64,000 nucleotides of DNA from a virus (Duplodnaviria > Caudoviricetes). The notes under the pieces are model-generated. The model saw only the letters and a program-made list of their open reading frames with translations. It was not told the origin of the DNA and searched no databases. The position numbers and the translations under genes are program-made. The stretch spans positions 32,001-96,000 of IMG/VR virus record IMGVR_UViG_3300015214_000001; one strand, 5' to 3'. Below are positions 25,615-60,144 of the stretch, piece by piece. Each line of letters begins with the position of its first letter. Positions within the stretch are counted from its first letter, which is position 1.

Positions 25615-26118
25615 TCATATTCCTATTAAACGTATAAGGATAAACTCAACTAACATTTTGGGACTAAACAAAAACCACTCAAGATGATAACGCAATCCAG
25701 CGTAGTGGTCATGAAAAACGCGCTCACCATGCACTTCATCTGGAACTTTAACATTCCACCAAACAAAAATCCCGAATGGTGCGGCAGTACGATGGCTACG
25801 TAGGCGGCTATTTTGATCTGCGCTTCTGCCAATCTTAACCACTGGTAAAATAATGCCTATATCTGAAAAAGCATATATATATCCACCACCACGAACGCGA
25901 TTAATACGCCGTGATTTATTTTTATTGCCATGTCTTGACTTAAAGTGCATTTTATACTTTAGGCGCGTATATCCATATACACCCCATAAGACACAAAAAC
26001 ACAACCACAACAAAAGAAGATGTTTTGTTACATCCCAGTTATTGGTCATCATATAAACGATACACCATGAGATCGGATATATAGAGTAACTGATTACAGA
26101 TTTTAGTATTAAACCCAT
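25615..26118 (-). CDS. membrane-anchored GIY-YIG (T5orf172/MUG113-like) protein
   Basis: two N-terminal hydrophobic helices; GYIY...VKIGRS...RL...ERVFH...EWF. Confidence 0.7.
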   Translation of the reverse strand: MGLILKSVISYSIYPISWCIVYMMTNNWDVTKHLLLLWLCFCVLWGVYGYTRLKYKMHFKSRHGNKNKSRRINRVRGGGYIYAFSDIGIILPVVKIGRSADQNSRLRSHRTAAPFGIFVWWNVKVPDEVHGERVFHDHYAGLRYHLEWFLFSPKMLVEFILIRLIGI

Positions 26119-26148: not shown

Positions 26149-26170
26149 AAAACGTGGAAGTCCACGTTTT
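26149..26170. repeat. dispersed palindrome, copy 3 (probable terminator of the tRNA-like RNA unit)
   Basis: aaaacgtggaagtccacgtttt; on the minus strand it is followed by a T run. Confidence 0.85.
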
Positions 26171-26184
26171 AAAAAAGTGTTATG

Positions 26185-26261
26185 TGGAAGTGTGCGGACT
26201 CGAACCGCAGTACAACGCCTATCTCTTTACAAATAAACGCTGGCAATGCCATATCACTCCC
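26185..26261 (-). ncRNA. tmRNA-TLD-like / D-armless Ala-identity tRNA-like RNA, downstream copy (77 nt)
   Basis: GGGAGUG/CACUUCC acceptor stem with G3-U70 and A73; linker AUAUGGCAUUG; hairpin CAGCGUUUAU/AUAGGCGUUG topped by UUU-GUAA-AGA; T-arm UGCGG-UUCGAGU-CCGCA. Confidence 0.8.
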
Positions 26262-26286
26262 ATTTAATAATAATAGTTCTAATAAG

Positions 26287-26365
26287 TGGAGGTGCAGAGG
26301 ATCGAACTCTGATGTAACGCAGTCCCTTGCAGGCTTTAATGCGTTGCACACGCCATATCACCCCC
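26287..26365 (-). ncRNA. tmRNA-TLD-like / D-armless Ala-identity tRNA-like RNA, upstream copy (79 nt)
   Basis: GGGGGUG/CACCUCC acceptor stem with G3-U70 and A73; linker AUAUGGCGUG; hairpin UGCAACGCA/UGCGUUACA topped by CCU-GCAA-GGG; T-arm CAGAG-UUCGAUC-CUCUG. Confidence 0.8.
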
Positions 26366-26377
26366 TCATTAGAACTC

Positions 26378-26406
26378 ATGATAGCATTTGAGCTTATCGC
26401 TGTCAA
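26378..26406 (-). promoter_or_regulatory. sigma70-type promoter for the tRNA-like RNA pair
   Basis: minus strand TTGACA(26406-26401), 17 bp, TATCAT(26383-26378); predicted TSS about 6 nt before G1 at 26365. Confidence 0.8.
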
Positions 26407-26413
26407 GTATGAG

Positions 26414-26929
26414 TTATAGCAATTCGTCAGGCAAAAGATTGGCATCCAAATTGAAAGTTGTTTCAGGTTCTTCTAAATCGGCAACAAGTCGTCCCCATCG
26501 ACTATCAACCTGTGAAAGTGATTGAATGGCAAAGAATAAAGCGATATACGCTTCTTTGTATTTTTCGCCATCGCGCATCGAATAACCTTTAACATCCTTG
26601 ACCATTTGGTAAAGCTCAACGAGATAATAAAGCACTTCATTTAAAGCAACTTTACTCTCATCTGTTTTGCTAATACATGATCGAGTCAAAATAAGTAAAC
26701 TCTTGACGTTAGATGTGAGAATAACATTACTTTGAGAGACCTTAGTCGTTATGTCGTTGAATTGGCTAATCAATTGCGCGATAGGATGTTCATGTAGATT
26801 ATCATAAGGCGCTTTGAATGATTTAATCGGCAATGTTTTCTCGGCCTTTAAATCTATGATCTTTTTTATTGTGCCTTGCTTTAAACGATTATATAATTTT
26901 CCCTTTTTACTCGACATCACTCTTACCAT
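26414..26929 (-). CDS. hypothetical protein
   Basis: 171-aa ORF. Confidence 0.65.
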   Translation of the reverse strand: MVRVMSSKKGKLYNRLKQGTIKKIIDLKAEKTLPIKSFKAPYDNLHEHPIAQLISQFNDITTKVSQSNVILTSNVKSLLILTRSCISKTDESKVALNEVLYYLVELYQMVKDVKGYSMRDGEKYKEAYIALFFAIQSLSQVDSRWGRLVADLEEPETTFNLDANLLPDELL

Positions 26930-31725: not shown

Positions 31726-32212
31726 CTAATACCCTATTTTTATGCTTTTTTCGTTCAGCAATGCGCTTTGTAGCATCTGCAATCTTACCGAACGAATTAA
31801 AGCCCTTGAGACTTTCATGTAGTTGTGCAAAGGTCTCAGTGGTCAGAACACGTTGTGTAGCATCTATAATGCGTTTTTGTTCTGAATTAATAACCAACAA
31901 ATCACGTAAATCTTGATCCGAAGCATTGCCACTACTTCCTTGACTTCCGCCTAAATCCATATATTTCACAAGATCAATTAAAAATCTGTGTGTTTCGGAA
32001 ATGAGCTTCAATGCTCTGGTCTGATCGTCATAGACATCTTCAATCAGACCTTTTAATTCGCTAAGATCATCCTGTGTGCTTTTAGGAGTTTCAGTTGGTG
32101 GCACAATAGAAATTCCTTCTTCATAGGGGTAAGGCATCTCTGGGGCATCAAGTTCTTCTTCTGTGTTGTTTAAGTCGCTTGTCATCGCGCTATTCTCCAT
32201 TTTACAATACAA
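31685..32212 (-). CDS. hypothetical coiled-coil protein
   Basis: about 166-175-aa ORF. Confidence 0.65.
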   Translation of the reverse strand: MYCKMENSAMTSDLNNTEEELDAPEMPYPYEEGISIVPPTETPKSTQDDLSELKGLIEDVYDDQTRALKLISETHRFLIDLVKYMDLGGSQGSSGNASDQDLRDLLVINSEQKRIIDATQRVLTTETFAQLHESLKGFNSFGKIADATKRIAERKKHKNRVLDVMQGGGEEDVLS

Positions 32213-59795: not shown

Positions 59796-59867
59796 GTCCT
59801 TGTAGCTCAGTGGATAGAGCAGTAGTTTCCTAAACTATGAGCGCAGGTTCGAGTCCTGCCAAGGGCA
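59796..59867 (+). tRNA. tRNA-Arg(CCT)
   Basis: cloverleaf; GTAGT-TTCCTAA-ACTAT anticodon arm; GCAGG-TTCGAGT-CCTGC; CCA not encoded. Confidence 0.9.
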
Positions 59868-59990
59868 TAGGGTTCATCCCCTAGAAAATGGAAACTTTTC
59901 ATTTTCTCCTTGTGTTGGGGTGGTTGGTTTTGATCTGGACAGTCTTTCGCCAGCCACCCCTTTTAAAACACAATTTTAACAAAACCATAC

Positions 59991-60063
59991 GGGCCTATAG
60001 CTTAATGGTCAAAGCCGCGACCTCATAAGTCGTTGAGTCTAGGTTCGAATCCTAGTGGGCCCA
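59991..60063 (+). tRNA. tRNA with CAT anticodon, most likely Ile2 (lysidine), otherwise elongator Met
   Basis: GGGCCTA/TGGGCCC acceptor, GCGAC-CTCATAA-GTCGT; G1-C72 paired and no GGG/CCC anticodon stem, so not an initiator. Confidence 0.85.
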
Positions 60064-60068
60064 CATAT

Positions 60069-60141
60069 ACCCTCATAGTTCAGCGGAAAGAACAATAGCC
60101 TTCTAAGCTATGTGTCGCAGGTTCGAGTCCTGCTGAGGGTA
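60069..60141 (+). tRNA. tRNA-Arg(TCT)
   Basis: ACCCTCA/TGAGGGT acceptor; ATAGC-CTTCTAA-GCTAT; GCAGG-TTCGAGT-CCTGC. Confidence 0.9.
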
Positions 60142-60144
60142 CTT

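Follow-up and report, generated by a model that had tools for sequence, protein, structure and literature searches.

What are the two small RNAs that a tailed phage (Duplodnaviria; Caudoviricetes) appears to make from a dedicated unit at positions 26,149 to 26,406 of the 64,000-nucleotide stretch considered here? This stretch, referred to below as the window, covers positions 32,001 to 96,000 of the IMG/VR record IMGVR_UViG_3300015214_000001. It had been proposed from the sequence alone that the unit encodes two tandem “mini-tmRNAs”, that is, RNAs reduced to the tRNA-like domain (TLD) of transfer-messenger RNA (tmRNA), with alanine identity and their own transcription unit. This core reading has found support in the alignment of both RNAs to the Rfam tmRNA model, in the silence of the gene finder ARAGORN, in relatives that exceed the Rfam cut-off, and in the architecture of an RNA reported from Mycobacterium phage DS6A. 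The resemblance of the two RNAs, called A and B here, is more than chance: they are homologous to the tRNA-like domain of tmRNA. Judged by sequence and fold, they are diverged members of a phage family of TLD-only (tag-less) tmRNAs of the DS6A type.

The Rfam tmRNA model (RF00023) was not trained on either RNA, so its scores are independent. Searched with permissive thresholds, it matches RNA B at 44.9 bits (E = 1.7e-16) and RNA A at 27.2 bits (E = 4.9e-9). For both RNAs the alignment spans model positions 1-374 with 303-326 internal positions deleted, which is the whole mRNA-like and pseudoknot part of the molecule. The gathering threshold of 47 bits is reached by neither, and at gathering thresholds Rfam reports three tRNAs only. 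When the families of the clan compete, tmRNA beats tRNA as the best match for both RNAs; the scan reports the best clan match where matches overlap, and a weaker match to the mitochondrial tmRNA model (RF02544) could be masked. ARAGORN calls no tRNA or tmRNA at the unit and no tmRNA anywhere in the 208-kb phage genome, only ordinary tRNAs. Both programs had been named in the sequence-only reading as the way to check it, and what they return is a pair of sub-threshold tmRNA matches without an ARAGORN call.

The unit lies entirely on the minus strand and is made up of the following parts:

26406-26378, minus strand: sigma-70-type promoter, TTGACA-17 nt-TG-n-TATCAT, with 11 of 12 consensus positions matched and a TG ahead of the -10 hexamer
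26365-26287, minus strand: mini-tmRNA A, 79 nt, from sequence, fold and the Rfam tmRNA match
26286-26262, minus strand: AT-rich spacer of 25 nt between RNA A and RNA B, from sequence
26261-26185, minus strand: mini-tmRNA B, 77 nt, from sequence, fold and the Rfam tmRNA match
26170-26149, minus strand: hairpin resembling an intrinsic terminator (9 bp, of which 4 are G-C), with a T run after it, predicted from sequence

This order of promoter, RNA A, spacer, RNA B and terminator is the one first proposed, and it held at the same coordinates. The unit fits between the stop codon (26414) of an open reading frame (ORF) of 171 aa and the start (26118) of an ORF of 167 aa, both on the same strand. 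Its promoter is the top-ranked of seven promoter-like sites within the surrounding 2 kb. Transcription would be expected to start near 26370, leaving a leader of about 4-6 nt ahead of RNA A, and the spacer between the two RNAs is presumably removed by tRNA-type processing.

How closely do the two RNAs follow the tRNA-like domain? Each has an acceptor stem of 7 bp, GGGGGUG/CACCUCC in A and GGGAGUG/CACUUCC in B, with the G3:U70 pair and A73. For alanyl-tRNA synthetase (AlaRS), such a 7-bp acceptor with its G3:U70 pair and A73, stacked on a T arm, is the part that is needed. On the 3′ side of the first acceptor strand there is an unpaired AUAUGGC linker, identical in A and B, and at the other end of the molecule a T arm with a perfect 5-bp stem (CAGAG-UUCGAUC-CUCUG in A, UGCGG-UUCGAGU-CCGCA in B). 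Pair 4:69 of the acceptor differs on both sides between the two copies, and so do four of the five T-stem pairs; the shared fold with compensatory changes that had been noticed at the outset is borne out by these double changes. The interior of each RNA is only about 40 nt long and contains no tag reading frame. CCA is encoded in neither gene, in agreement with the earlier statement: A runs on as ACUU and B as ACAU.

The interior is where A and B part. RNA A has a single hairpin topped by AAAG / CCU-GCAA-GGG / AC, an A-rich loop with a C-C/G-G stem and a GCAA cap. RNA B has a plain hairpin of 10-12 bp followed by the 3′ linker UAC, and its minimum-energy fold reaches -29.4 kcal/mol (z -3.5). 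A GNRA tetraloop had been claimed for both hairpins. It is clear in A (GCAA); in B the minimum-energy fold gives the hexaloop GUAAAG, and GUAA closed by a U-A pair appears only as an alternative. The (U)UCGAC and GGAC elements which flank helix P2a in tmRNA are absent, with CGUGUGC and ACAU in their places in A, and CAUUGCC and GUAC in B, although the conserved A of the 3′ linker (position 53 in RNA A) is kept in both copies. The sequence-only reading had regarded the CGAC/GAC elements as not conserved. This is right for A and B and does not hold for the family as a whole, where many relatives retain UCGAC or UUGAC, and GGAC or GGAA.

It is worth comparing this layout with the two ordinary RNAs it resembles. 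Bacterial tmRNA (SsrA, RF00023) shares with A and B the G3:U70 pair, A73, a D-loop analogue (GA-nn-UGG) that lacks a D stem, a helix at the position of P2a, and the T arm; it differs in having an mRNA-like domain, a resume codon, a tag frame, a stop codon and pseudoknots, none of which is present in A or B. tRNA-Ala and the alanine minihelices likewise have a T arm on which a 7-bp acceptor with G3:U70 and A73 is stacked. However, tRNA-Ala has a D stem, an anticodon stem-loop and U8, whereas A and B have A8 and lack both stems: instead of an anticodon stem with a loop of 7 nt there is the hairpin with its tetraloop or hexaloop.

Are A and B alone? Two covariance models were built, R1 from the window copies A and B and R2 from 49 family members, DS6A not included; both contain the window copies, so that the scores they give A and B are no independent evidence. 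The model from the two copies had been suggested in the sequence-only reading, and it does find relatives, whose covariation supports the fold. For IMG/VR a pattern was used that fixes 20 bases taken from both copies, located in GUGA-nn-UGG, in the T loop and in the 3′ strand of the acceptor, while any base is allowed at positions 1-4 and 69, in the T stem and in the interior. It has matches in at least 119 contigs, where by estimate only few would be expected by chance, and about 66 of the 80 matches listed were confirmed by covariance model. The family counts given here are lower bounds, as the patterns fix part of the sequence. A first, looser pattern with 15 fixed bases was discarded, its matches being mostly chance (3 genuine among the 80 listed). 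Of 18 relatives tested, 8 exceed the Rfam tmRNA cut-off, with 50.9-66.1 bits. ARAGORN, run on 42 of the loci, calls no confirmed member, and frequently finds ordinary tRNAs, often tRNA-Met, directly beside one. Judging from these contigs, RNAs of this kind are common in uncultured phages.

All the distinct members that were folded (about 48 relatives) have their parts in a common order: the acceptor, A-N-N-U-G-G, a linker of 4-7 nt (often UAUCGA, UUUUGA or UUAGA), a hairpin whose sequence varies, a second linker of 3 nt, the T arm, the 3′ acceptor strand and A73. The 3-nt linker is GAC, GAA, AAC or UAC, and its A is invariant in the 19 sequences of an alignment designated A4. After A73, the relatives continue with CCA or a near-CCA such as CUA. 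The evidence for the fold is strong. In the proposed pairs 97% of the cells are paired, against about 50-60% when the partners are slid, and none of 500 shuffles reached the observed score. The T stem and pair 4:69 covary strongly across the relatives, and all eight pairs of the inner stem have changed on both sides in A4. These inner-stem pairs were counted on a hand-set structure; RNAalifold missed the stem because the MAFFT alignment shifts its register.

The alanine identity pair is conserved family-wide. Both G3:U70 and A73 are present in 19 of the 19 sequences of A4, and a search with positions 70 and 73 left free brought 14 extra loci, among them one new clear member, which has U70 with U73. 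That G3:U70 is kept even when these positions are free argues for selection on charging and not on pairing alone. It had been said beforehand that homologues without G3:U70 and the T arm would speak against the proposal; both features are kept across the relatives. The one departure seen in the free search is the clear member just mentioned (L357, 7580-7656, minus strand, 56.3 bits).

A few observations on the wider distribution may be added. The same 20-base pattern gave 93 matches in 596 billion bases of prokaryote genomes; among the 80 of them listed, 23 score at least 41 bits with R2, mostly on contigs of metagenome-assembled genomes (MAGs) from many phyla. MAGs of Poribacteria (L253, L284, L292, L285) and Peribacteria (L246, L259, L288) carry matches of 71-72 nt with 50-54 bits, some of them on megabase-sized chromosomes. 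Such matches may lie in prophages, may be TLD-only RNAs of the chromosome itself, or may be parts of permuted tmRNA genes. Searched by blastn against GenBank phages, the locus itself gave no match, and of two relatives searched in the same way one (L039) gave a single match of 44 nt and the other none. These 44 nt of the mini-tmRNA of L039 are 87% identical to the 3′ portion of a tmRNA that is annotated, with a length of 496 nt, in the crAss-like phage cr50_1 (L336, MT774375.1 39374-39869), a similarity which suggests that the full-length and the TLD-only phage forms are related. In two other relatives, L017 (4240-4405, plus strand) and L006 (920-1140, minus strand), the sequence just upstream of the mini-tmRNA contains a common motif of about 25 nt, GCTAGACGAGTAGCTTAATTAGGT, together with more ORF-free sequence, and in L017 a T-arm-like element as well. 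This upstream motif may belong to a further structured RNA that ARAGORN does not call.

Has such an RNA been seen in a phage before? The sequence-only reading knew of none, and in this it was mistaken. “Mycobacterium phage DS6A (TLD only)” was listed by Hudson, Lau and Williams in 2014 (PMC4131195), and the entry was repeated in the tmRNA database paper of 2025, which also counts nine “standard, no CDS” (coding sequence) sequences (PMC11915505); the supplements of the latter contain no phage list. Both papers credit the case to Mao et al. 2009, and the RNA is tmID 11587 of the tmRNA Website. Although DS6A was not among the sequences it was built from, R2 has a single match in the genome of this phage (JN698994.1 28478-28560, L339), with 44.2 bits and an E value of 1.3e-8. 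The Rfam tmRNA model gives this RNA 43.2 bits, near the score of RNA B. It is because the DS6A RNA has the same layout, and because a model that had not seen it finds it, that A and B are to be counted as a known kind. The DS6A gene sits between gp33 and gp34 (DNA pol III), where the GenBank record has no feature.

The likeness extends to details. The DS6A RNA is phage-borne, about 80 nt long, and has G3:U70 and A73 with no encoded CCA (ACUA). Its first linker, of the type xAAUGG, is unpaired; a single hairpin follows, then 3 nt of linker and a T arm whose loop reads UUCGAUU. RNAs of the DS6A type are taken here to be 65-90 nt long and free of a reading frame, as A and B are. The top of its hairpin, GAAAA / CCGC...GCGG / UA, resembles that of RNA A in its A-rich loop and C-C/G-G apical stem, and alignment A4 sets the two RNAs in one frame. 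There are differences too. DS6A is an actinophage of 60.6 kb with a single copy, while here two diverged copies stand in tandem behind one promoter in a 208-kb phage. In the DS6A RNA the hairpin is still flanked by UCGAC and CAC, and position 8 is C; A and B have A8 and have lost the 5′ GAC element. Its acceptor pairs 5:68 and 6:67 are both C-G and differ from those of A and B.

Beyond phages, tmRNAs without a coding sequence are found in jakobid mitochondria (RF02544) and as two plastid genes of about 65 bp in Mallomonadaceae (PMC11915505). Like A and B, these are naturally occurring derivatives of tmRNA in which the tRNA-like domain alone is left and the tag frame is missing. However, the organellar forms are mostly circularly permuted, descend vertically from the endosymbiont tmRNA and co-occur with a nucleus-encoded SmpB, whereas the phage RNAs are unpermuted and their genome has no SmpB gene. 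The TLD-only fragments engineered in the laboratory also have the acceptor, the D-loop analogue, a short closed helix and the T arm; they are constructs cut from host tmRNA, while A and B are natural genes with a conserved interior of their own. The literature searched contained no paper on a broad phage family of TLD-only tmRNAs.

What, then, is particular to this locus? R2 was run over the whole records of 50 other carriers, 11 of which are at least 90% complete. In 49 it found one copy, and in the remaining record a second, weak match of 33.9 bits; among these 50 and the phage studied here, the latter is the only carrier with two strong copies. A candidate for a second copy (L144, 3667-3745, 24.5 bits) was rejected for want of a proper acceptor stem. 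A and B are 67% identical to each other, and A is nearer to RNAs of other phages (73-74%) than to B, whose own best match, in L006, is 69%; on these identities the divergence of the two copies is old. Most carriers are records of about 50-65 kb, as against 208 kb here. What is new is a pair of diverged copies in one unit of a jumbo phage, a modest twist on the family and no new category.

Which partners would the RNAs find in the infected cell? The carrier is a record of 208,458 bp with direct terminal repeats, estimated to be complete. A genome-wide search found no gene of SmpB, AlaRS, RF-1/ArfB or Pth type in it, so the phage must use the partners of its host. It does have a gene for a class-II nucleotidyltransferase of 498 aa (105134-106630 of the full genome, outside the window), whose best matches are CCA-adding enzymes, at scores below the equivalog cut-offs. 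This gene follows directly on the fourth phage tRNA gene, Arg-ACG (104574-104650 of the full genome, also outside the window). The other three, Arg-CCU, Met and Arg-UCU, lie in the window (59796-60142, plus strand), and the tRNA-Met has no encoded CCA.

These data allow a mechanism to be proposed. Host RNA polymerase would make one early transcript from the strong promoter, from which the tRNA-processing enzymes of the host would excise both RNAs. CCA would then be added by the host enzyme or by the CCA-adding-type nucleotidyltransferase of the phage, and host AlaRS would charge both RNAs through G3:U70 and A73. Once charged, they would form complexes with host SmpB and with EF-Tu; both SmpB and the stalled ribosomes would then be contested between the phage RNAs and host tmRNA. 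It is proposed that ssrA tagging would be blocked or replaced during infection, because the RNAs carry no reading frame. We consider the chances about evenly balanced that A and B are indeed such alanine-charged competitors of host tmRNA.

Two lines of work in the literature bear on this proposal. Mao 2009, as cited in PMC4131195 and PMC11915505, found strong inhibition of tmRNA in E. coli by a molecule consisting of the TLD alone, which may act through titration of SmpB. A TLD-only tmRNA also accepts peptidyl transfer in vitro, in a reaction blocked by kirromycin (PMC3895274, citing Shimizu and Ueda 2006); this favours a charged RNA that acts on the ribosome. The conservation of the alanine identity suggests that the phage RNAs must be charged, and that they probably act on the ribosome rather than as a passive sponge.

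Several points weigh against competition with host tmRNA. The Rfam score of RNA A is only 27 bits. The 5′ (U)UCGAC element is gone from both RNAs, and A also lacks the usual GAC/AAC/UAC ending on the 3′ side; this region belongs to the SmpB-binding site. A block of ribosome rescue could harm the phage too. Furthermore, the inhibition credited to Mao 2009 in PMC4131195 and PMC11915505 was seen whether or not the RNA was chargeable; if inhibition is independent of charging, a pure sponge would not explain the invariant G3:U70.

A possible, though rather unlikely, alternative is that the RNAs carry out a productive rescue without a tag. Here the charged RNAs, with host SmpB and EF-Tu, would accept the nascent chain, which would be released by a host factor of the ArfB or Pth type or after repeated additions of alanine, and the ribosomes would be recycled with no degradation mark of the ClpXP type. 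The invariant G3:U70, the nearly invariant A73 and a CCA that is either encoded or can be added all indicate that charging matters, and peptidyl transfer to a TLD-only tmRNA takes place in vitro (PMC3895274). It also helps this explanation that tmRNAs without a coding sequence have been retained together with SmpB in jakobid mitochondria and are present in some plastids (PMC11915505). However, the RNAs have neither a frame nor a stop codon and hence no built-in release step, and the phage supplies no RF-1/ArfB-type or Pth-type protein; the sole experimental report, as cited in PMC4131195, is one of tmRNA inhibition and not of rescue. Blocked rescue and tag-less rescue are not to be told apart from sequence. 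A variant of tag-less rescue that we find distinctly improbable would have the two copies specialised. RNA B would mainly capture host SmpB, and RNA A would recruit a second factor through its A-rich loop and GNRA-capped stem, a type of hairpin top that recurs in DS6A and numerous other phages. Each copy would carry alanine and go into stalled ribosomes together with SmpB. Release would then be tag-less or alanine-tailing, and phage proteins would be protected from ssrA-directed proteolysis, for instance while mRNA or tRNA is being cut by defence nucleases.

It is also conceivable, if quite doubtful, that the RNAs act outside trans-translation altogether, as decoys for RNase P or Z, the CCA-adding enzyme, T-loop modifying enzymes or a defence nuclease, or as alanine donors for a non-ribosomal aminoacyl-transferase. 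The loss of the (U)UCGAC element from A and B would fit such a role, as would an interior hairpin that varies freely in the family, a conserved A-rich loop and C-C/G-G stem without an assigned partner, and the many relatives that lie inside or beside phage tRNA genes. However, the parts that are conserved (A8, the missing D stem, the UGG linker and the P2a-like helix) are precisely those which separate the tRNA-like domain of tmRNA from a tRNA, and clan competition picks tmRNA; nor is there a conserved partner gene nearby in the phage, the flanking ORFs having no informative family except for a T5orf172 domain downstream. There is very little to recommend the view that A and B are non-functional remnants, be it decayed pseudogenes of tRNA-Ala or tmRNA, an attP-type fragment of host ssrA, or a misread permuted tmRNA. 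The model of the permuted two-piece tmRNA (RF04321), in whose gene order the 3′ acceptor piece comes first and the 5′ acceptor with a coding piece for the tag second, does give a sub-threshold match of 27.5 bits (cut-off 47) that begins in the T arm of A and extends over the 5′ end of B, and the phage encodes a tyrosine recombinase. Such a match is what two tandem copies produce, however, and a two-piece gene was rejected, since A and B are each complete and a tag frame is missing. Both RNAs have their 5′ and 3′ halves, perfect stems, and a promoter and terminator of their own; the compensatory changes between the copies and across some 60 distinct relatives point to selection on the fold. The only recombinase gene is about 53 kb away, and ARAGORN, as noted, finds no tmRNA in the whole genome.

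Trans-translation is present in nearly all bacteria. If the phage RNAs do block or re-route it, as the competition with host tmRNA proposed above would have it, they would amount to a compact tool, supplied by nature, against a pathway that is central to quality control. What was known of this consists of one phage case, DS6A, and one inhibition experiment in E. coli with a similar molecule. Standard annotation overlooks the family, both in the ARAGORN calls and in the DS6A GenBank record, yet well above 100 contigs of uncultured phages carry such genes. The complete 208-kb genome described here, with its tandem diverged pair, near-consensus promoter and CCA-adding-type enzyme, provides a natural comparison from which the function of the variable interior could be approached.

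We would like to end with the surroundings of the unit. Three phage proteins were searched for clues to the host. Their best matches are only 26-32% identical and come mainly from phage contigs of human faeces that bear no annotation, and the hosts named differ from one protein to the next. The recombinase mentioned above is represented by a tyrosine-recombinase (Phage_integrase) domain at 111409-111933 of the full genome, outside the window, in an ORF of 368 aa; it may serve integration, resolution or inversion. A neighbouring RecJ-like gene has one distant relative in IMG/VR (28% identity), with no mini-tmRNA within 6 kb of it there. The upstream 171-aa ORF (26414-26929, minus strand) matches no Pfam or PHROG family and shows no likeness to SmpB; its Atlas structure model is poor (pLDDT 0.46) and gave no usable look-alike. 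The downstream 167-aa ORF (25615-26118, minus strand) carries a T5orf172 / MUG113 domain, which we take to be related to GIY-YIG, and it may be a homing-endonuclease-like gene beside the RNA unit.

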